Positions 2,216-16,377 of a DNA stretch of 16,377 nucleotides are shown piece by piece. Location: IMG/VR virus record IMGVR_UViG_2711768101_000011. One strand, 5' to 3'. The stretch's first letter is position 1, and each line of letters begins with the position of its first letter. Below the pieces are notes generated by a model that made no database searches, was not told where the DNA came from, and saw only the letters and a list, made by a program, of their open reading frames with translations. Source of the stretch: a virus. Its lineage: Duplodnaviria > Heunggongvirae > Uroviricota > Caudoviricetes. Both the position numbers and the translations under genes were made by a program.

Positions 2216-2418
2216 ATTTTCACTTTTTTAAATCCAACGACAGACGGCTGGCATTTAAGTATTGTGAAATATTATCAAATGTAATCATCATTGATTTACA
2301 AAAGATACATTTTGCCCCGAAAGGATTCATGTCAGAAACATCAAAAGATGATGTTCTATACTGGGAACCATGACAACACGGGCATCTAAAGTGAATATGG
2401 TTTGTAATATTGTCTACC

Positions 2419-2631
2419 TCAAAGCGCCACTACATGAACAGCGGCAGGACCTTTAGGTCCGTTCTCAATACCAAATTCAACTTCCTGATTCTCAGTTAAT
2501 GTTTTGAAATCGTTGCTCTGAATTGCTGAGAAATGGACAAACACATCTTTGCTGCCATCTTTCGGCGTGATGAAACCAAAACCTTTTTCAGGGTTAAACC
2601 ATTTCACTAAACCAGTCATTTTGTTAGACAT
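2419..2631 (-). CDS. cspI: CspA-family cold shock protein (70 aa)
   Basis: [38 protein letters not shown]... carries RNP1/RNP2-type cold-shock domain motifs; AAGG Shine-Dalgarno; long AT-rich leader typical of csp genes; cspI versus cspB assignment is from context. Confidence 0.85.
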
Positions 2632-2992
2632 AATTATTACCTTTTGAAGAAATTAGCCCTTGGGCAGAATGGTCCGAAAAAAATATCAGAGAGAAAAACC
2701 AACAAGGAAATCTCAAGAGGTACAAATAATAAAATTATAACAATGACTGCTTCAGATAAATTTGTAACAAACCAGAACACCATTAACGCATGATTAACCA
2801 CCCATAGCAAGGATTACTTTTGTAAAGAAAAACACAGCAATGAAAGAATAGCTTTATTTATTAATAAAACGTGTCATTCTGATTAAGACCTTTTATCTTA
2901 CCCTTAAGATTTCAGGAATTTTGGCTCATGGAAGAGTCCTTTTTATTTAAATTTTACATTCCGCGATGTAAATGTTCCGATTTAATATTACC

Positions 2993-5154: not shown

Positions 5155-6350
<1,196 letters not shown>

Positions 6351-7058: not shown

Positions 7059-8018
7059 TTAATTCACCATCAGTCTTAGAGCCAGTTCTTCCGGATAGGG
7101 ATCGAAGTAATTCTGTGTAAGCAAGTAATCATTAGGATACTCACCCAGATAATGCTTCAGCAGAGTCAACGGCGCAAGAAGAGGCAATGTGCCAAAGCGA
7201 TAGTTAAGTATAACCTCGCTCAACTCTTTACGCTGGCGTGTACTTAAGTAATTACTAAAATACCCCTGTATATGCATCAGCACATTCGTGTGATTTTTAC
7301 GTGATGCTGGTTTTCTGAGAATCGCCATCAGATTATCACGATACACCTCAAAGTATGATTCAAGGTCCGCCCACTCGTGTATTGCAGCCACAAATGGTCC
7401 CATATCTTTATAGCCTGCCTGGCTATGCGCCAACAACTGAAGCTTATAACGACTATGAAAAGCTAATAACTCTCTTCTTGATAATTTCTCCTTGTAAAGA
7501 TGATTGAGCTCATGCAAAGCAAAAACTCTTTCAATAAAATTCTCACGAAGCACTGGATCATGTAATCGCCCATCCTCTTCAACCGGTAGCCAGGAAAACT
7601 TTTCCATCAAAGTGCTCGTAAATAGTCCCACCCCATCTTTACGACCTCGATTACCATTTTCATCATAGACACGCACGCGCTCCATGCCACAGCTGGGAGA
7701 TTTAGCACAAACCACAAACCCCGATACATCCTTTAATTTGTCCATATAAGAACGACTAAACTCTGTCATTCTCTCTGTCACATCCTCATTCTGGTCGTGG
7801 CTGAAACACATCCGTATATTTCCTTGCTTCGAGCGCACAAGTCGTAGAGCAGGACGCGGAACTGGCAGCCCTATAGCCATTTCCGGACATACTGGTCTGA
7901 ATGTTACCCATTCCACTAATTTGTCCATTAAAAAGTCATCTCTTTTGTGACCACCATCAAAACGAACAGCAGAACCGCCCAAACAACCGCTGATCCCAAT
8001 CACAGGTTTTTTTATCAT
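7059..8018 (-). CDS. DUF523-DUF1722 fusion protein (TudS / YbgA-like putative Fe-S thiouracil desulfidase family)
   Basis: 319 aa; N-terminal Cys-containing motifs (GISGCLGG, RPVCPE, KSPSCG) consistent with DUF523; C-terminal half YbgA/DUF1722-like; strong AAGGGGGAGGAA Shine-Dalgarno before the ATG. Confidence 0.7.
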   Translation of the reverse strand: MIKKPVIGISGCLGGSAVRFDGGHKRDDFLMDKLVEWVTFRPVCPEMAIGLPVPRPALRLVRSKQGNIRMCFSHDQNEDVTERMTEFSRSYMDKLKDVSGFVVCAKSPSCGMERVRVYDENGNRGRKDGVGLFTSTLMEKFSWLPVEEDGRLHDPVLRENFIERVFALHELNHLYKEKLSRRELLAFHSRYKLQLLAHSQAGYKDMGPFVAAIHEWADLESYFEVYRDNLMAILRKPASRKNHTNVLMHIQGYFSNYLSTRQRKELSEVILNYRFGTLPLLAPLTLLKHYLGEYPNDYLLTQNYFDPYPEELALRLMVN

Positions 8019-8210: not shown

Positions 8211-8735
8211 ATGAAGTTATGGCCTGTGTTGACTGGCATTGCACTCTCTTTCACTCTTATAGCATGTAAGGCCCCGACACCACCTAAAGGTGTGCAGCCG
8301 ATTACAAATTTTGACGCCAACCGCTACCTCGGAAAATGGTATGAAATAGCTCGCCTCGAGAACTGGTTCGAACGTGGTCTGGAACAGGTCAGCGCTACTT
8401 ATGAAAAACGGAACGACGGAGGGATTCGCGTACTTAACCGTGGATACGATCCAACGAAAAACAAATGGAGCGAGAGCGAAGGTAAAGCATACTTTACTGG
8501 AGATACTAAAACTGCAGCGTTGAAAGTTTCGTTTTTTGGCCCCTTCTATGGTGGCTATAATGTAATCAAGCTGGATGATGAGTATAAGTATGCTCTTGTC
8601 AGTGGTCCGAACAGAGAATACCTATGGATTCTGGCAAGGACCCAAACTATTCCAGATAATGTAAAAGCAGACTATGTGCGTACCGCTCAAAAGTTGGGAT
8701 TCAATGTCAATGAACTATTATGGGTTAAACAATAA
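8211..8735 (+). CDS. blc: Outer-membrane lipocalin, Blc homologue
   Basis: Lipoprotein signal peptide with lipobox LIAC; lipocalin motifs (NFDANRYLGKWYEIARLENWFERG, KVSFFGPFYGGYNVIKLD) closely match Blc but are clearly diverged from the chromosomal copy as I remember it. Confidence 0.8.
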   Translation: MKLWPVLTGIALSFTLIACKAPTPPKGVQPITNFDANRYLGKWYEIARLENWFERGLEQVSATYEKRNDGGIRVLNRGYDPTKNKWSESEGKAYFTGDTKTAALKVSFFGPFYGGYNVIKLDDEYKYALVSGPNREYLWILARTQTIPDNVKADYVRTAQKLGFNVNELLWVKQ

Positions 8736-9285: not shown

Positions 9286-10335
9286 TTAGGCCAGCACACC
9301 AATTGCCAGCGCGCGATCGATAAATCGAAAAATCAGCTCCAGTTGGGAGCCATACTTCTCTTCAAATGCCACGGTATCCGTATGCAACTCGTCGTGATGC
9401 TTTCTGCACAAAGGCAACACAAAGAGATCATGTGCTTTGGTTCCCATTCCGCCCTGCCCGTGACCAATCAGATGATGCGGATCGTCGGCTGGCATACCGC
9501 AGCAAGCACACGGCTGTGTCTTAACCCAGCGTGTGTATTTCTCCTTAACCCAACGGTGACGTTTAGGCAGCTTCATGAAAGATTCCGGAGACTCTGGATC
9601 AACGGTGATGCTTACCACCGTCTTTTCCTGTGATGGGTTTTGTTGCTGGTGGGCGTGAGGCAACGGTGCAAGATTTTTTGTGCGCTGTTTCAATATGCTG
9701 GTGGCGGTCTGCTCTCCCGGTACGATGTCGCTTTCGCGGTACACCGCGCAGTTTTTTTCCGCTGGTAATCCCAGCGAGCGACGTAATACCGCTTCCGGTA
9801 GCGCGTCCGCCACCTGATTGCGGACCGCCCACCAGGATAATTCAGCCAGAGATAATTCACGCTCCTGCGTACCGCTTATTGCGTGACCGATGACGTCAAT
9901 CATCCATGCTGACAGGTTTTGATGAGCAAGTTGCTCGAGTGATTCGGATGTCTGGTCACGCAGCTGGTTGTCGCAGTGCCAGCACAACACCATTGCGCCG
10001 GTACCATAACGGTGAATAACGGTTTCGCTGTGATGATAATCGCCGTGTGGCCACTGGCAGGATTTAATATGGCGCAACAGCCAGTCAGACAATGCACCAG
10101 CACCACCAGCAGCACGAATTACCCGTGCGTTACTGAAAAACGGCAGCAATGTTTTGTCTTCCACCAGCGGCTGGCGAACGGCAGGAACGACCCCGGACGG
10201 CAGATTACGCATGCTTTTCGGTTCCGGCTCCACCAGTACCCGGGTATTGTGGAATACCGGCATGGATTCACGGCCCGGCTTAACGACCACCAGCCCGAGT
10301 TCCGGTACCAGAACAGGTCGAAGTAATATCCGCAC
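9286..10335 (-). CDS. ydfU: YdfU-like prophage protein (DUF968, HNH-like C-terminus)
   Basis: 349 aa; C-terminal [21 protein letters not shown]...[10 protein letters not shown] motif; GTG start with GGAGG Shine-Dalgarno; resembles Qin YdfU. Confidence 0.8.
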
Positions 10336-10336
10336 G

Positions 10337-10615
10337 TTACCTCCAGATGCGTTGCTGGAATGTACGGGACGGACGCGGTGGGCGTTCGGAGTAAGGCAAT
10401 CTGACTGAGATTATCAAGTGACGGTAGTCGAGACTAAGAGCTTTCTTAACCTCGTATCCGCGCCTGCGGTAACACTGAATTATCCATTCAGCCTGCTCTT
10501 CAGTGCATGGAGGGTGCTGGAACCATTCAGACTTGAATGCGTGAGAATACCGCTCGTGCGTGCAGGCAAGAACGGGCGAATTATCAGAATTGTAATATTT
10601 TACGTTGCGTGCCAT
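10337..10615 (-). CDS. Hypothetical Cys/His-containing phage protein (92 aa)
   Basis: ATG with GGAG Shine-Dalgarno; stop TAA one nt before the ydfU GTG start (tight coupling); no family recognised. Confidence 0.45.
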   Translation of the reverse strand: MARNVKYYNSDNSPVLACTHERYSHAFKSEWFQHPPCTEEQAEWIIQCYRRRGYEVKKALSLDYRHLIISVRLPYSERPPRPSRTFQQRIWR

Positions 10616-10681
10616 CGGTTTTCTCCGGTGGCACGGTGTTACTCAGCGGGAGTTCAGCCCCGCGCAAGATTGTAGATGAGT

Positions 10682-10933
10682 TTATTCTTCTGCAAAAGCT
10701 GAAAAGCCTGCTTTTATTCCGATCTCTTTCAGTGCCTGTAATGAAGTGACAAACTCACCTTCGCGCAAGATAAATCCGTCTGTCACTCGACCATCCACAA
10801 AATTAATTAACGCAGCCCCATTCTTTCGCAAACACATAATGCGGTAATGACTAACAAGATTTCCATTTTCAACGCACACAGCATAGAGGCCATCTTCACA
10901 AAAAATTTTACGCAGTTCTTCGATGTTCATCAT
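10682..10933 (-). CDS. rem: Rem-like small prophage protein (83 aa)
   Basis: Length and position (between hok and ydfU) match Qin rem; GGAAGGA Shine-Dalgarno; sequence identity to rem is from imperfect memory. Confidence 0.5.
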   Translation of the reverse strand: MMNIEELRKIFCEDGLYAVCVENGNLVSHYRIMCLRKNGAALINFVDGRVTDGFILREGEFVTSLQALKEIGIKAGFSAFAEE

Positions 10934-11048
10934 CAGAATCCTTCCGGATAATTAGCTCTCCCCTTTAAGGGACCATCCCTCTTATCCCTGCGCGCTACTT
11001 AAGTATTTTTGATTCTATTCCGGCACCGTCCAGAACTTCAAACGCGTT

Positions 11049-11080
11049 GAAAATAAAAACAAAAACCCGCCGAAGCGGGT
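11049..11080 (-). terminator. Rho-independent terminator at the 3' end of the hok transcript
   Basis: On the minus strand, ACCCGC-TTCG-GCGGGT hairpin followed by TTTTTGTTTTTATTTT, about 70 nt after the hok stop. Confidence 0.55.
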
Positions 11081-11149
11081 TAAGTGCGAGTGCGTTGAGG
11101 ATGCTTGCCACATCAGAGGTGGCGAGGGATTTCTCCCTCGCCGGGTCTC

Positions 11150-11305
11150 TTACTCCTCAGGTTCGTAAGCTGTGAAGACAGCGACCTCCGTCTGGTCGGT
11201 TCGGATTCGTACCTCGCAGAGGTCTTTCCTCGTTACCAGTGCCGTCACTATGACGGTTAAACAGATGACGATCAGGGCGATTAACATCGCCTTTTGCTGC
11301 TTCAT
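11150..11305 (-). CDS. hokD: Hok-family type I toxin (HokD/RelF-like, 51 aa)
   Basis: MKQQKAMLIALIVICLTVIVTALVTRKDLCEVRIRTDQTEVAVFTAYEPEE; AAGGAG Shine-Dalgarno before the internal ATG; the ORF-track ORF extends in frame upstream to 11362. Confidence 0.8.
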   Translation of the reverse strand: MKQQKAMLIALIVICLTVIVTALVTRKDLCEVRIRTDQTEVAVFTAYEPEE

Positions 11306-11480
11306 AGCCTGCTTCTCCTTGCCTTTCGGCACGTAAGAGGCTAACCTACATGTGTCTAGCATGAAATTGGCCTCAGATTAATGTTAAGCGTCTTGCAGGA
11401 CGCGTAATGTTAACTGGGGCTTTTCTCTATCTGCCGTTGATGTTCATGCCCGAGGCAGATAGCCTCAAGCACCCGCAGCC
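11306..11480 (-). promoter_or_regulatory. hok mRNA leader region with structured elements (possible antisense/sok-equivalent region)
   Basis: Perfect 9-bp inverted repeat CTATCTGCC (11427-11435) / GGCAGATAG (11454-11462); hok loci are known to be controlled through leader structure and an antisense RNA; no sok promoter was positively identified. Confidence 0.3.
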
Positions 11481-11802
11481 ATTCTACTTAACTACCGTTA
11501 CCTCTCCAATATGAAATCAATCAGAAAGGTGATCCATAAGAACAATAACAAGACAATAAATTGCCATTACAGCCACAATAGCCAGCGTGCATTTGAGAAC
11601 CAGCACATAAATCTCCTGCTCTTGACGTATACAGGCACTGATAAATATGTGTCTTCGTGCTCGTTACTTCAATACGTAAGCGTCAGTTGCGCGTAATCAA
11701 ATCAGACAACCGACTTTAAACCAGGGACAAACAGCAGGTAAAATAATCAAACGTTATTTTAAGCCATATCATGGCTGCAAGATTTCCTCTAATTTCAACA
11801 AG

Positions 11803-11839
11803 ATGAGCAGGTCATTGCTTGCACTGATGACCTGCTCAT
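11803..11839. repeat. Perfect 13-bp inverted repeat (hairpin or protein-binding palindrome)
   Basis: ATGAGCAGGTCAT - 11 nt - ATGACCTGCTCAT, seen directly; about 80 nt downstream of the QueH-like gene stop. Confidence 0.6.
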
Positions 11840-11917
11840 TAATCATGATTATTTGAAAATTAAGGTAGGCGTACTATATATAGAAACACTGCTACGCTCC
11901 GTTGGCATAATATAAAA

Positions 11918-12601
11918 TCATTCCTGGCCTTCTTTACCGTAGTGGAGTTGACCAATTTTGATTAGAGGGCGTCCCTGAGATTTGCGGTGTAGATTGGTAT
12001 CGCGCAGTGAATACACGCAGCCACAATATTCCTGCTGATAGAATTGTTCGCGCTTGCTGATTTCAATCATGCGGGAAGAGCCGCCCTGCTTTCGCCAGTT
12101 ATAATCCCAGTACACCATGCCCGGATAATACGCGACGGCTCGCCGTCCACAGTCGTTAACCTGCTGCATATTTTTCCAGCGTGAAATGCCCAGTGAGCTA
12201 CTGATCACACTGAAACCATTTTCAGCGGCATACAGCGCAGTCCGCTCAAAACGCATGTCAAAACACATGGTACAACGGATCCCTCGTTCAGGCTCCCATT
12301 CCATTCCTTTGGCTCGCTCAAACCAGTTGTCTGTGTCGTAATCAGCATCAATAAATGGCACGCCGTGTTGTTTAGCAAAGCGAATATTCTCATCCTTACG
12401 AATTAAATACTCTTTCTGAGGATGAATGTTCGGGTTGTAGAAAAAGATGGTGTAGTCGATTCCCGAGGCCTGAAGCGCCTCCATCACTTCACCGGAACAT
12501 GGAGCACAGCAAGAGTGCAGTAATAGTTTTTTTGCCCCGTTTGGGAGCTCCAATTTGGGGCGTTTGAAATCAGCAACAGTCATAAATGTGTTTATGAGGT
12601 T
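11918..12601 (-). CDS. DUF208 / QueH-like Fe-S protein (epoxyqueuosine-reductase-like)
   Basis: [13 protein letters not shown] motif near the N-terminus plus CTMC and YCGC Cys motifs, consistent with the DUF208 (QueH) family as I remember it; start uncertain (12601 or 12580), no clear Shine-Dalgarno. Confidence 0.6.
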
Positions 12602-12636
12602 CATGAAAATAGCAAAAAGTGTAGCATCAGAACGGG

Positions 12637-12870
12637 CTATCGGAAACAGATGTCTAAATCTGGTAATGTCTGCTTTTGATGCAAAGCAGACAACCACGGC
12701 AGCGCACGAAAATCAGCGATAATGTCGGGATTAATAATCGGGTGACGTCCATCACATAGCGAATGTTCCTCTTTCCTGATATCGCTAAATATCGACCATT
12801 CGTCATTCTTATCGAACCAGAGCATGCGACTGCCACAGCACATGTCGAGAATGGTAGCCGATGTACTCAC
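12637..12870 (-). CDS. Hypothetical small Cys-rich protein (77 aa)
   Basis: GTG start overlapping the upstream stop (GTGA) with GGGAGG Shine-Dalgarno inside the upstream gene; motif [14 protein letters not shown] loosely resembles a SAM-binding motif I but the protein is too short for a methyltransferase. Confidence 0.4.
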
Positions 12871-13289
12871 AGCATCACCTCCCGATAATTCCCCTGATAA
12901 AACGTCAGAACACGCTGCATAACTTCGCTCTTCCGGCACTCGCGACAGATTATGTTTAGACGACTGTCGTAGCGACGTATTTCTCCATCAGGTAATGACC
13001 AGATAAGGTCCGGATCAACCACAGCAGGTTTCTTCACCTTTGCCCTCGAGAGTTTTTTGCGGGCGTTTTGCCAGTCCTTACGCGCCTGTTCAGACGGGAA
13101 TAACCCGTAGCCGGAGTTGTATACATCGCCACTGGCTACCAGCTCTCTGGCAAGAACGCTCATCAGATATCTAGTCGCACCTGTTTTAGCTTCCAGTTGC
13201 CGTAACGTCTCACGACCGCTCTGGCGCACGAGTTCCACCACTTGCCCTTTAATTTTTTCCCGCTCTTCTTGTGTAAAAACTTTTGCCAC
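12867..13289 (-). CDS. Hypothetical phage early protein (140 aa)
   Basis: GTG start with strong AAGGGGGAG Shine-Dalgarno; Lys/Arg-rich; no family recognised. Confidence 0.5.
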   Translation of the reverse strand: MAKVFTQEEREKIKGQVVELVRQSGRETLRQLEAKTGATRYLMSVLARELVASGDVYNSGYGLFPSEQARKDWQNARKKLSRAKVKKPAVVDPDLIWSLPDGEIRRYDSRLNIICRECRKSEVMQRVLTFYQGNYREVML

Positions 13290-13329
13290 AACTCCCCCTT
13301 AAAATTACCTCATGACCTGAAATCAACAC

Positions 13330-14295
13330 TTATCCTCTGAAACCAGGCGGAATTTCTGTATCCGGTTCAGAAATATGATTAACACAACGCTGTACAGGTG
13401 AACGTCCCAGGCGGATGACCAGTTCGTCCCATTTTTCGCGGAGCTTTGACGGGCTCATGATGTTTTTTACCCAGAATGGATCTCGCTGAACCCGACCAAA
13501 CATTTCGCAAATTTGTCTGTGGCTTCTGCCATCCAGCATCCGCATTGTGCGCACGTCATTGGCCCAGGCAGTCCAGTTAGGCTCTTTTGGTCGCATGATC
13601 TCGCCATCATCACTGGCTGCCTGTTCGTAGAGACCCACGATCCGCCCCCAGATCCACTGCGCACACGCCAAATCCTCCCTGCTACCCCACTGGCGTTTTT
13701 TCGCACTAAACACAACCGCGTCGGAGTTCCGGGTTAAAAAATCCTGTTCAGTCGTCTGCGGGTCCGGTTGCGAAGCTTCCGGACGAAAAGTGTTTTTATT
13801 CTCTGTAGTAATCTCTGTTGTATTCTCTGTAAGATCATCAGGCCATTTTGACCCGATGACATTGGATCGTTTTGAACCAATGGAGCGTTTCATTTTGACC
13901 TCTTCCATCGTGTCATTTTGACCTGATGGAGCGGCGCATTTTGAACCGATGGATTCGTTCAATTTGCCACCATCTAAAAGCTCGCTCCCATAGTTGATCG
14001 TGTAGAAATTGGTCATATCGCGCTTTGATTTATTGAGCTTTTCACAACGCAAAAGCCCCAGCGTTTTCAGACTTGCAAACGCGCGCTTTAACGTTGACTC
14101 TGACCAGAATGGGAACTGTTCCAGCCATTGTTCCGTTGTGTTATAAATCCAGCGAACACCATCACATTCCATACCGGAGTTGGTATCTCTCAACCAGTAG
14201 TGCAGTTGTTGCAAAACAATGGCTTCGTTTAAGCCGATTTTCATTGCCAGCTGCGTGTTTATAACCAGTGGGCGTTCAGCAAAAAGAAGACTCAT
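13330..14295 (-). CDS. Phage replication initiation protein (replisome organizer, O-like / YdaU-like) with internal origin iterons
   Basis: N-terminus MSLLFAERPLVINTQLAMKIGLNEAIVLQQLHYWL... is replisome-organiser-like; direct DNA repeats inside the gene correspond to SIGSK peptide repeats; start set to ATG at 14295. Confidence 0.65.
   Translation of the reverse strand: MSLLFAERPLVINTQLAMKIGLNEAIVLQQLHYWLRDTNSGMECDGVRWIYNTTEQWLEQFPFWSESTLKRAFASLKTLGLLRCEKLNKSKRDMTNFYTINYGSELLDGGKLNESIGSKCAAPSGQNDTMEEVKMKRSIGSKRSNVIGSKWPDDLTENTTEITTENKNTFRPEASQPDPQTTEQDFLTRNSDAVVFSAKKRQWGSREDLACAQWIWGRIVGLYEQAASDDGEIMRPKEPNWTAWANDVRTMRMLDGRSHRQICEMFGRVQRDPFWVKNIMSPSKLREKWDELVIRLGRSPVQRCVNHISEPDTEIPPGFRG
13798..13975. 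repeat. Putative origin of replication iterons inside the O-like gene
   Basis: Five to six CATTTTGACC-like repeats at about 23-bp spacing (13844, 13869, 13891, 13914, 13937, 13960), preceded by three copies of TCTCTGT at 11-12-bp spacing (about 13798-13830). Confidence 0.6.
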
Positions 14296-14797
14296 AATTC
14301 CATCCAGCTTTTTGTTGGTATTGCTGTCGATACGCAAGCTTGAAAGCAATTGCTTTTTCTATAAGTTCGTCAGTTTCACGATCTACAACGGCAGGATCTG
14401 CAAAAAGCAGTCCGGATTCCACCACATCGCCATATTCTTTATTTAACCCGGCGATCATGTACGTAATACTTTTTCCATCACTGATCTCACGATACAACCT
14501 GAAATCACTAATCCGGATAGCCTCCATAATTGCAGGCACTAGCGCTGTGAACTTTTCACGCTTATCCCTGGTGTCGATAGCCTTCCAGCGTTCGAATATC
14601 TTCACTCGATTAACGCTAAGCGCTCGCTGATCAACCGCGCCACCTTCATATGTGACACGCTGAACATCGATGTTCGGGCGCTCTTTCAAAGCCCAGAATG
14701 CTTCAGTGATTAATATCGTCGCCTGCTCCTGTGTCATTCCTGGTCGACATATCCAGGCATCCAGAGCCTCACGAGCCTGTTCAGGAGTGATTTTCAT
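14276..14797 (-). CDS. Hypothetical early protein (173 aa) in the cII/YdaT position
   Basis: ATG at 14797 lies 17 nt inside the 3' end of dicC; its stop lies 20 nt inside the start of the O-like gene; no confident family call. Confidence 0.45.
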   Translation of the reverse strand: MKITPEQAREALDAWICRPGMTQEQATILITEAFWALKERPNIDVQRVTYEGGAVDQRALSVNRVKIFERWKAIDTRDKREKFTALVPAIMEAIRISDFRLYREISDGKSITYMIAGLNKEYGDVVESGLLFADPAVVDRETDELIEKAIAFKLAYRQQYQQKAGWNYESSFC

Positions 14798-15008
14798 TGT
14801 TCAACCGCCCCGCCCGCTTCGTCTTACGATATTCGTCATAAACTTTGGGATCATACTGAAGCTCCCCGCCAGATGCCTCCTGTAGACGCATCGCGCGACC
14901 TTCAGGAACCAGTATCCCCCAAGCAGCAACACTTGCCAGTCTCACTCCTGCGGCATTGGCAAGCTTTGTTTTGCTGCCAAAAAAAGTAATTGCGTCAACT
15001 TTAAGCAT
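14781..15008 (-). CDS. dicC: Cro-like regulator DicC
   Basis: MLKVDAITFFGSKTKLANAAGVRLAS...EGRAMRLQEASGGELQYDPKVYDEYRKTKRAGRLNNENHS is near-identical to DicC over its C-terminal half from memory; GAGGGGG Shine-Dalgarno; divergent from dicA. Confidence 0.8.
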   Translation of the reverse strand: MLKVDAITFFGSKTKLANAAGVRLASVAAWGILVPEGRAMRLQEASGGELQYDPKVYDEYRKTKRAGRLNNENHS

Positions 15009-15020
15009 CAAAGCCCCCTC

Positions 15021-15040
15021 TTGTTAGACTTTTCTAACAT
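15021..15040. promoter_or_regulatory. Operator-like palindrome in the dicC-dicA intergenic region
   Basis: TGTTAGA-CTTT-TCTAACA perfect 7-bp inverted repeat between the divergent repressor and cro-like genes. Confidence 0.45.
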
Positions 15041-15088
15041 TATTGTGCGCGGGATACCTAAGTCAAGAAAAATTAGAATTACCTAACT

Positions 15089-15496
15089 ATGGATACAAGA
15101 ACCCTAGGCCAGCGAGTTCTGGCGCGACGAAAAGAATTACGCTTAACACAACGAGAAGCTGCGCGCCTCGCTGGAGTTGCTCACGTCACAATTTCACAAT
15201 GGGAAAGAGACGAAACCCAGCCAGTCGGAAAACGATTGTTTGCTTTAGCGGATGCTCTGAAGTGCTCACCTACATGGCTAATGTTTGGTGACGAAGACAA
15301 GGCACCAGTGCCTGCACAAGAACTTCATGTGGAAACAGAGCTAACTCCCAACCACAAAGAATTGATCGAATTATTCGATGCTCTTCCATCTTCCGAGCAG
15401 GAAGCCTTGCTGTCTGAAATGCGCGCAAGAGTAGAAAACTTCAACAAACTCTTCGAAGAAATGCTTAAAGCGCGTAAAAATAAATCAATAAAATAA
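15089..15496 (+). CDS. dicA: Prophage repressor DicA (XRE-family HTH)
   Basis: 135 aa; HTH region LTQREAARLAGVAHVTISQWE and C-terminal MRARVENFNKLFEEMLKARKN closely resemble DicA from memory. Confidence 0.85.
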   Translation: MDTRTLGQRVLARRKELRLTQREAARLAGVAHVTISQWERDETQPVGKRLFALADALKCSPTWLMFGDEDKAPVPAQELHVETELTPNHKELIELFDALPSSEQEALLSEMRARVENFNKLFEEMLKARKNKSIK

Positions 15497-15531
15497 CATT
15501 CTTTTCAAGTGATTAGTTGCGCCCACTCTTT

Positions 15532-15551
15532 TTGTTAGATCAATCTAACAA
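15532..15551. promoter_or_regulatory. Second operator-like palindrome downstream of dicA, upstream of the ydfA-like gene
   Basis: TTGTTAGA-TCAA-TCTAACAA perfect 8-bp inverted repeat, same half-site as at 15021-15040; a degenerate third copy TGTTAGG-TTAT-TCTAAAT at 15570-15587. Confidence 0.45.
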
Positions 15552-15664
15552 AAAACACTTGCCTCTCATGTTAGGTTATTCTAAATTACTTTCCATCAAG
15601 ACACCGCACGGTGTTCTCAGCAAACAGTTCCGCGACCCCGGCGTTAAGGGGAAATGAGGTCAGC

Positions 15665-15817
15665 ATGGATACTATCGATCTTGGCAACAGCGAATCTCTG
15701 GTATGTGGCGTGTTCCCCAACCAGGACGGTACGTTCACCGCGATGACATATACCAAAAGCAAAACGTTTAAAACCGAATCTGGCGCGCGTTGCTGGTTAG
15801 CCAGAAACACTGACTGA
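15665..15817 (+). CDS. ydfA: YdfA-like small protein (DUF1391, about 50 aa)
   Basis: MDTIDLGNSESLVCGVFPNQDGTFTAMTYTKSKTFKTESGARCWLARNTD; GAGG Shine-Dalgarno before the internal ATG of the ORF-track ORF. Confidence 0.6.
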   Translation: MDTIDLGNSESLVCGVFPNQDGTFTAMTYTKSKTFKTESGARCWLARNTD

Positions 15818-16194
15818 TGAGGCTGACGATGGAATTTAAAGATTTACCGTCTGATGTACAGAAAACAGCAGCTCATACATTGCATTCTGTGCTGCGAGAA
15901 ATCGGGAAAGATATTGCAAGCGAGCCAGCAAAAGATCTGGCCCGGAAAATCAAGACCGCTTTCGTTGAGCTTTATAATGTTGGCACTGACTCTGAAACTG
16001 TCGAGACCAAGACCGTAAGTTCACCAATATTCTCACTTGAGCCAGGCGTATTATCAGGTGAAATATGCACCGAGATTTCCAGCGAACTGCTTCCGGTAAT
16101 ACGAGAAGCAATTTGCCGTCGCGGTTTGGATGGAAGTTACGATCATGACGTCCTGCAAGTTCTCAGGACAATGGTGACTTCACTGGGGATTTGA
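15817..16194 (+). CDS. Hypothetical protein in the ydfB/ydfC position (125 aa)
   Basis: ATG overlaps the ydfA-like stop (TGATG); an alternative start at 15829 is possible; no family recognised. Confidence 0.4.
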   Translation: MRLTMEFKDLPSDVQKTAAHTLHSVLREIGKDIASEPAKDLARKIKTAFVELYNVGTDSETVETKTVSSPIFSLEPGVLSGEICTEISSELLPVIREAICRRGLDGSYDHDVLQVLRTMVTSLGI

Positions 16195-16377
16195 TCCCTG
16201 CGTCCTCTAACCTTTTGATATAGCGGTCCTCCAAGAAGCGGTAAATTTTGTCGAAATCATCTTTCCCCTCTGGTTTATTCAGAGGATTACAGGACCCGTA
16301 AGTAGCGGCATACATTTCAACCGTTTTATCAAAAATATAAGAGACAAATTCTTCTTTATGGATTTGCCCCTATATTT
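16162..16377 (-). CDS. Partial ORF running off the right edge of the window (C-terminal 71 codons)
   Basis: Hand translation of the minus strand is open from the window edge to TGA at 16162-16164 (...DDFDKIYRFLEDRYIKRLEDAGIKSPVKSPLS); overlaps the 3' end of the plus-strand ORF, so one of the two may be spurious. Confidence 0.25.

Follow-up and report, generated by a model that had tools for sequence, protein, structure and literature searches.

We report that the window, by which we mean the whole 16,377-nt stretch of DNA analyzed here (IMG/VR record IMGVR_UViG_2711768101_000011), carries an intact gene for the epoxyqueuosine reductase QueH on a Qin-like lambdoid prophage of the Escherichia coli B/C/Crooks type. 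On the evidence presented below, we consider it probable that this queH is a moron-like cassette for the B12-independent conversion of epoxyqueuosine (oQ) to queuosine (Q) in host tRNA. The original prediction, made from the letters of the sequence, had placed three co-oriented genes between the replication gene and hok, and these are indeed present on the minus strand at 11918-13289, flanked by an O-like replication gene and hok/sok; we refer to these open reading frames (ORFs), in the order of transcription, as ORF1, ORF2, and ORF3, the last being queH. The transcription order runs from a cro-like gene through a YdaT/cII-like gene, the O-like initiator, ORF1, ORF2, ORF3, hok/sok, rem, and DUF968 to the Q antiterminator. 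The corresponding locus of REL606 (NC_012967.1, ~1.62 Mb) is 99.7% identical to window positions 10230-16358, and positions 11700-13400 are matched at 100% identity by strains YJ6 and ETEC6.

The identity of ORF3 was established by profile and sequence searches, which gave a match to PF02677 (QueH) of 220 bits (cut-off 23.5) over profile positions 1-174 of 175 and a match to Thermotoga maritima QueH (PDB 7lc5/7lc7/9deu), whose biochemistry and structure have been characterized, over residues 20-196 with an E value of 7.9e-22. The CCAPC, RCxxC, and CGC (YCGCV) motifs are intact and align with those of the T. maritima, Staphylococcus aureus, and Listeria enzymes; at the position of T. maritima QueH (TmQueH) Asp13, ORF3 has a cysteine (CCAPC versus CCAPD), a form that is also found in S. 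aureus and Listeria. We take the cysteines of the CCxPC/D, CxxC, and CxC motifs to be the ligands of the Fe-S cluster and the adjacent metal site. ORF3 is a genuine, intact QueH, so that the DUF208/QueH-like protein of the original prediction was correctly recognized, and its location on a prophage in the ren/nin slot is borne out. The start codon is most likely the ATG at 12583, which gives a protein of 221 aa, because cross-species homology (tblastn and blastn) begins there and because some queH alleles, at the in-frame position further upstream, have a stop codon or lack an ATG; RefSeq also gives 221 aa, whereas starting from the in-frame ATG at 12604 would lengthen the protein to 228 aa.

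The annotation of this protein differs among resources. RefSeq names it QueH in ~1,000 genomes, and since an NCBIfam hidden Markov model search of all three ORFs at E <= 0.01 returned no match, that name must derive from another rule. PHROGs lists the family as phrog_3217 of "unknown function," and phage genome annotations call the protein hypothetical, as in the isolated phage HannyBb, which has a window-type region at 99.5% identity and a QueH annotated "hypothetical protein." The earlier description of the grouping as something undescribed thus holds for the phage resources but not for RefSeq, and an inexpensive annotation fix is available because PHROGs and the phage annotations leave the function blank. 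The phrog_3217 profile starts past the CCAPC motif, at Met34 of the 221-aa protein, which is residue 41 when the 228-aa reading is used. Gene calls for this family in phages thus seem in many cases to be placed too far downstream, a possible reason for the "unknown function" label.

To delimit the mobile unit, we compared the sequence contexts in which queH occurs. Only ~11912-12631 is common to all compared contexts, and nucleotide homology to other species (79) is limited to 11914-12585, that is, to the coding sequence. The left junctions of the prophage types, at ~12699, 12650, and 12631, are independent of one another, and all of them keep TGCTACACT, a predicted extended -10 promoter element, at -43 from the queH ATG. 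In all E. coli prophage contexts examined this element stands at -43/-44, and it is found at the same distance on one Klebsiella plasmid and in the chromosomes of Scandinavium, Kluyvera, Enterobacter, and Symbiopectobacterium, where the surrounding intergenic DNA is unalignable. Such conservation suggests that queH moves with its own promoter. Hairpins lie on both sides of the gene, and neither is a canonical intrinsic terminator. The upstream hairpin is common to most of the aligned E. coli prophage variants (the window type, the -194 type, and related types) and is absent from L023/L031/L034 and L006, where the -586-type and Rac-type junctions lie nearer the promoter; it is a candidate for an insulating terminator or for a regulatory element. 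The downstream hairpin is absent from the ST131-type context. An AT-rich spacer separates queH from hok/sok in the window-type and Rac-type contexts; this spacer is absent from the ST131/O157 type, in which hok/sok sequence begins 6 nt past the queH stop codon. In a scan for consensus promoters and terminators, the hits were no more numerous than in shuffled sequence, and none fell at queH. The Rfam scan of the window at gathering thresholds returned only sok and a cspA thermoregulator, and relaxing the threshold to E <= 5 over 11300-13000 yielded nothing credible. Taken as a whole, the boundaries make it reasonably likely that queH forms a self-contained, moron-like cassette.

We surveyed 5,426 complete E. 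coli genomes and, for viruses, the best 80 of 188 IMG/VR relatives. The gene is present in 1,047 of the E. coli genomes, 984 times near full length, although these counts are inflated by oversampled clones (ST131 and laboratory B derivatives). By nucleotide identity, 72 records fall at >=99% (the window type) and 884 at 90-95%, the latter including ST131 and O157:H7. Carriers include ST131, O157:H7, and REL606, but not K-12 or BL21(DE3); in both BL21(DE3) and the phage PhiR42_1 the slot itself is without queH. In 958 genomes queH is contiguous with DUF977, the family to which ORF1 belongs, and DUF977 lies directly 5' of queH in 72 of the best 80 viral contigs, with alleles that are 58-100% identical, several different replication modules, and hok usually downstream. 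Outside E. coli and E. albertii, QueH proteins 75-92% identical to that of the window are encoded by 79 species at loci that have no DUF977 in the vicinity, for example between yciI and tonB in Serratia proteamaculans (L119 4523-6637) and near icd and rluE in Enterobacter. Plasmids of Klebsiella, Enterobacter, and Salmonella carry queH among insertion sequence (IS) elements, likewise without DUF977. On the one Klebsiella plasmid inspected (pHNGS471-3; L007 3601-5614), queH adjoins a TonB-family fragment, which, together with the queH-tonB neighborhood in Serratia, hints at a chromosomal locus of this type as the source of the mobile copies. We suggest that queH came from an Enterobacterales chromosome and entered lambdoid prophages at the slot immediately behind their Ren-like/DUF977 gene.

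A functional link between DUF977 and QueH was considered and rejected, as QueH lacks a DUF977 neighbor on plasmids and outside E. coli, and the majority of DUF977 genes are not accompanied by queH. Their adjacency is positional, reflecting a preferred slot and recombination arms and not a partnership, because QueH is found in the 79 species and on plasmids without its prophage neighbor. Cargo on the other side of queH also varies: in the O157:H7 Z570 prophage (L005 3812-5822), an NgoMIV-family type II restriction endonuclease and a cytosine methyltransferase replace hok/sok after queH, which indicates that the slot exchanges defense or addiction cargo.

Pairwise ratios of nonsynonymous to synonymous substitution (dN/dS) are 0.015-0.08 among prophage alleles and in comparisons of prophage with plasmid and with chromosomal alleles, while dS reaches 0.27 within E. 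coli. These low ratios show purifying selection and indicate that the enzyme is being maintained. They also bear on the alternative that queH is a near-neutral hitchhiker, redundant with QueG and kept by its place between the recombining DUF977 and hok/sok modules. In its favor, the host has an intact queG, queH has been deleted in BL21(DE3), in some strains (H4, H5) the matched region is interrupted by an IS1, and QueH pseudogenes exist on plasmids. Against it, the diverged prophage alleles are under strong constraint, full-length queH copies are annotated as intact in the sampled genomes, and the promoter element has been kept across at least three independent left junctions; we regard the hitchhiker explanation as unlikely. 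The coexistence of the two reductases is directly seen in REL606, which has both queH and an intact queG, in agreement with the expectation in the original prediction that the host already possesses QueG. BL21(DE3), presumed to carry queH as REL606 does, was rejected as a carrier, since a 1,361-bp deletion in this strain (NC_012971.2; L175 ~1550), spanning window 11632-12992, takes out queH, the methyltransferase stub that is ORF2 (see below), and the 3' end of DUF977, all three of which REL606 keeps. These two strains constitute a natural queH+/queH- pair.

QueH is the cobalamin-independent alternative to QueG for the conversion of epoxyqueuosine to queuosine at tRNA position 34 (PMC9508795, PMC6461909), while QueG is cobalamin dependent (PMC5175355, PMC4646009). 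Cobamide-dependent conversion of oQ to Q in E. coli is attributed to Frey et al. 1988, as cited in PMC5175355 and PMC4646009. The similarity of the window protein to the chromosomal QueH of other species implies the same substrate. In the mechanism that we favor, the host would supply all earlier steps of the queuosine pathway, and prophage QueH, as an Fe-S epoxyqueuosine reductase, would convert oQ34 to Q34 without cobalamin in tRNA-Asp, -Asn, -His, and -Tyr. E. coli does not synthesize B12 de novo; because QueG needs a corrinoid that the cell cannot make, the cassette would render Q completion B12 independent, freeing it from an external supply. Transcription in the lysogen would probably start at the gene's own extended -10 promoter, with additional read-through from the early-right operon on induction.

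This last route raises the alternative that queH acts mainly in the lytic phase, as a member of the early-right operon (cro-like, YdaT/cII-like, O-like, DUF977, queH, hok, DUF968, and the antiterminator gene Q) expressed after induction, when more queuosine might assist the decoding of NAU/NAC codons in late genes. The gene does lie inside this operon, co-oriented and upstream of the Q antiterminator, and in Shewanella phage infection is reported to shift oQ to Q by inducing host queG (2026 preprint, 10.64898/2026.03.05.709803). By analogy, the Shewanella result makes a phage-host role plausible, and it has no direct bearing on this queH. Against a mainly lytic role, the conserved private -10 element travels with queH, including onto plasmids and into chromosomes that have no phage operon, and many carriers are defective prophages in which queH is nonetheless under strong purifying selection. 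Moreover, tRNA is turned over slowly on the time scale of a lambdoid lytic cycle. We thus think it improbable that lytic growth is the main context in which queH operates.

Several points weigh against our proposal of a B12-independent cassette for host tRNA. Both the activity and the expression of this allele we infer from sequence. The promoter is a prediction from conservation; it has a weak -35, because of which TGCTACACT was missed by the simple consensus scan, and no canonical Shine-Dalgarno sequence accompanies queH. The downstream hairpin is terminator-like, but its U tract is weak and it was not called by the consensus scan. The Rfam scans returned no riboswitch for B12 or preQ1 and no further regulatory RNA that would link queH expression to B12 status. 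The loss of queH from BL21(DE3) without obvious harm indicates that the gene is dispensable in the laboratory, and its prevalence is overstated by the clonal sampling noted above. Finally, we know of essentially no phenotype that separates E. coli with oQ-tRNA from E. coli with Q-tRNA.

If the proposal is correct, its consequences could extend beyond the prophage. Queuosine affects translational speed and fidelity, and the conversion of oQ to Q is among the B12-dependent reactions of E. coli; a mobile B12-independent bypass in ~18% of sequenced E. coli would make Q status under corrinoid limitation strain dependent, a point that matters for work on tRNA modification and for comparing strains, given that the carriers include the pandemic ST131, O157:H7, and REL606, the ancestor of the LTEE (long-term evolution experiment). 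More tentatively, queH might serve as a lysogenic-conversion gene that uncouples the last queuosine step from corrinoid supply, such that lysogens (ST131, O157:H7, and E. coli B/C) would contain Q and not oQ when B12 is scarce, as in gut competition. Decoding of NAU/NAC codons could then change, with possible effects on stress tolerance, biofilm formation, and susceptibility to other phages, and queH would be the first phage auxiliary gene for a tRNA-specific step of the queuosine pathway. What is already known is the enzyme family, the moron concept, and the RefSeq name; what is new is the prophage-borne QueH, whose presence in phages has gone largely unremarked. A 2019 survey of phage 7-deazaguanine genes found homologs of QueA, QueG, and QueH to be absent from the viruses analyzed (Hutinet et al., PMC6884629). 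Our search of the literature on QueH, DUF208, or epoxyqueuosine reductase in connection with prophages, the scope of which excludes Zallot 2017, found no description of the cassette.

The two genes preceding queH do not belong with it. ORF1 matches PF06163 (DUF977) at 101.6 bits and phrog_142, "Ren-like exclusion protein," at 159 bits, and RefSeq labels it a DUF977 family protein (WP_001151183.1). The GTG start and Shine-Dalgarno sequence proposed for this gene are upheld: GTG 13289 has AAGGGGGAG just upstream, and RefSeq uses the same start at the 99.7%-identical REL606 locus. ORF1 lies directly after the O-like gene, as lambda ren lies after P, and DUF977 is found in 4,051 of the 5,426 complete E. 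coli genomes (~75%), most of them without queH, so that it is an ordinary lambdoid gene. ORF1 represents the gene with which the replication module usually ends, and it has no specific tie to queH. Structure prediction and structural search, as suggested for this protein, were informative in part: a single-sequence AF2 model is confident only for residues 1-80, which adopt an N-terminal winged-helix-like fold, and no function could be assigned. The Foldseek matches, to winged-helix regulators, are too weak for such an assignment (E ~0.01, TM ~0.35), and a search of PDB sequences with the DUF977 protein gave no significant match. With lambda Ren and other DUF977 proteins (LygF, YdaW), ORF1 shares its place after the replication genes, the PHROG label, and a C-terminal CRECRxSxxMxRVL motif (10 of 20 residues identical to lambda Ren, E 6e-6); it differs in length (140 aa versus 96 aa for Ren), and the pairwise similarity covers only ~20 residues.

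ORF2 is the relic of a DNA methyltransferase gene. Its reading frame (12637-12870) has an apparent length of 77 aa, of which the last 22 codons are read-through into the queH cassette and are unrelated in sequence. The methyltransferase profiles phrog_11564 and phrog_954 match residues 3-61 only, the PADLOC MTase_II model matches residues 6-60, and an orphan MTase model also matches. In phage PhiR42_1 an intact 118-aa methyltransferase (L003 4811-5167) follows DUF977 with an identical 4-nt overlap; nucleotide homology to that gene stops at window 12704, after 55 codons, and RefSeq labels the REL606 counterpart a pseudogene "missing C-terminus." In the lineage of the window, the queH insertion appears to have destroyed the methyltransferase gene. 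The original prediction had seen here a Cys-rich gene with a GTGA overlap. The overlap is real, the ORF2 GTG and the DUF977 stop codon sharing the GTGA at 12867-12870. It goes back, however, to an ancestral pair of DUF977 and methyltransferase genes that PhiR42_1 still has in intact form, and the frame does not encode an independent Cys-rich protein. The cysteines of "MCCGS" lie within the region of the S-adenosylmethionine (SAM)-binding motif and do not form a metal site.

These results leave little of the original view of a coupled three-gene operon, or of an alternative in which a DNA-binding protein, a small Cys-rich protein, and an Fe-S enzyme would form a module that serves defense or anti-restriction or acts on 7-deazaguanine bases in DNA. 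The ORFs are co-oriented, two of them overlap, DUF977 belongs to the PHROG "Ren-like exclusion protein," and other phages use Q-pathway enzymes in DNA modification (PMC6884629). The middle ORF is, however, a truncated methyltransferase pseudogene, the trio is not a conserved unit, with the stub in only 13 of the best 80 viral contigs and the trio in 71 of the 5,426 genomes, and both on plasmids and in 79 species QueH is present where DUF977 is not. PADLOC defense models gave no match for ORF1 or QueH, the methyltransferase stub alone being matched, and no DpdA/TGT-like or preQ0-synthesis (QueC/D/E) genes are found among the window ORFs or the annotated genes of the REL606 prophage. To our knowledge, no oQ-type base occurs in DNA. 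QueA, QueG, and QueH also fall outside the phage DNA-modification sets (Hutinet et al., PMC6884629). The three ORFs are not one functional module, and a joint role in defense or DNA modification is largely refuted and now highly improbable. The coordinates of the features discussed are collected in Table 1.

Table 1. Features of the queH region, in window coordinates
Feature	Position	Strand	Basis or remark
Hok	11150-11305	-	downstream neighbor of queH
sok antisense RNA over the hok leader	11300-11474	-	Rfam; expected in Qin-type prophages
372-bp AT-rich spacer, queH to hok/sok	11540-11911		blastn junctions; GC 0.39
13-bp perfect hairpin, ~80 nt 3' of queH stop	11803-11839	-	repeat search; RNA fold -23.9 kcal/mol, z -3.3
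queH (ORF3), epoxyqueuosine reductase QueH, 221 aa	11918-12583	-	PF02677; RefSeq WP_021568046.1
Predicted extended -10 promoter element, TGcTACACT (TGCTACACT)	12618-12626	-	43 nt 5' of queH ATG; conservation
10-bp perfect hairpin, upstream cassette edge	12667-12692	-	repeat search; RNA fold -20.1 kcal/mol, z -2.0
5' remnant of phage DNA methyltransferase gene (ORF2), 55 codons	12704-12870	-	homology to PhiR42_1 gene; PHROG, PADLOC
DUF977/Ren-like protein (ORF1), 140 aa, GTG start	12867-13289	-	PF06163, phrog_142; WP_001151183.1
O-like replication initiator	13330-14349	-	upstream neighbor of ORF1

Other parts of the prophage also carry accessory genes and differ from REL606. Downstream of the Q antiterminator, at 7059-8018 (minus strand), lies an intact gene for a 319-aa fusion of a TudS-type 2-thiouracil desulfurase (PF04463) with DUF1722/YbgA, which matches phrog_3275 (unknown function) end to end and is split by an IS3 in REL606; it is a second Fe-S, nucleobase-related accessory gene besides queH on the same prophage. 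Between this gene and the Q antiterminator, and oriented oppositely (8211-8735, plus), is a gene for an outer-membrane lipocalin of the Blc type (NCBIfam PRK10477, 313 bits), which is another moron-like cargo. Relative to REL606, the window has a 1,196-bp insertion at 5155-6350 within an AraC-family regulator gene that is intact in REL606; the flanks overlap by 4 bp, and the insertion encodes a 326-aa transposase-like ORF (5302-6282, minus). We take this insertion to be IS5 from its size, the 4-bp target duplication, and the sequence of the ORF. The DUF968/HNH-like gene (349 aa, 9286-10335) keeps in the window its N-terminal part, 9840-10229, which is deleted in REL606 and BL21(DE3), where the gene is annotated as a truncated pseudogene. 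At 2392-2776 (minus), Rfam places a cspA-type thermoregulator 5' untranslated region (UTR) over a cspI-like gene, as expected in Qin-type prophages.

In its genetic behavior, the queH cassette resembles the lambdoid morons and lysogenic-conversion cassettes of the ren/nin region, such as hok/sok, in being present or absent at a fixed slot, and also in having its own predicted promoter, flanking hairpins, and cargo unrelated to phage growth; it differs from known lambdoid morons in that this cargo is a tRNA-modification enzyme, for which no published precedent was found in the literature searched. Like the phage 7-deazaguanine systems (DpdA with FolE/QueD/QueE/QueC), it makes use of the queuosine pathway. 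Those systems modify phage DNA and do so without QueA, QueG, or QueH (PMC6884629), whereas the window carries only the tRNA-specific last step and no DpdA. As a member of the QueH family (DUF208, PF02677/IPR003828), the prophage protein shares the full-length Pfam match and the cysteine motifs with T. maritima QueH (7LC5/7LC7) and with the Serratia and Enterobacter chromosomal enzymes, and what sets it apart from them is its carriage by lambdoid prophages and by an isolated phage, in a host equipped with QueG of its own. Prophage QueH is expected to carry out the same reaction (oQ34 to Q34 in tRNA) as E. coli QueG, and REL606 has the genes for both; the two enzymes are unrelated in fold and cofactor, QueG requiring B12 and QueH not (PMC5175355, PMC6461909).

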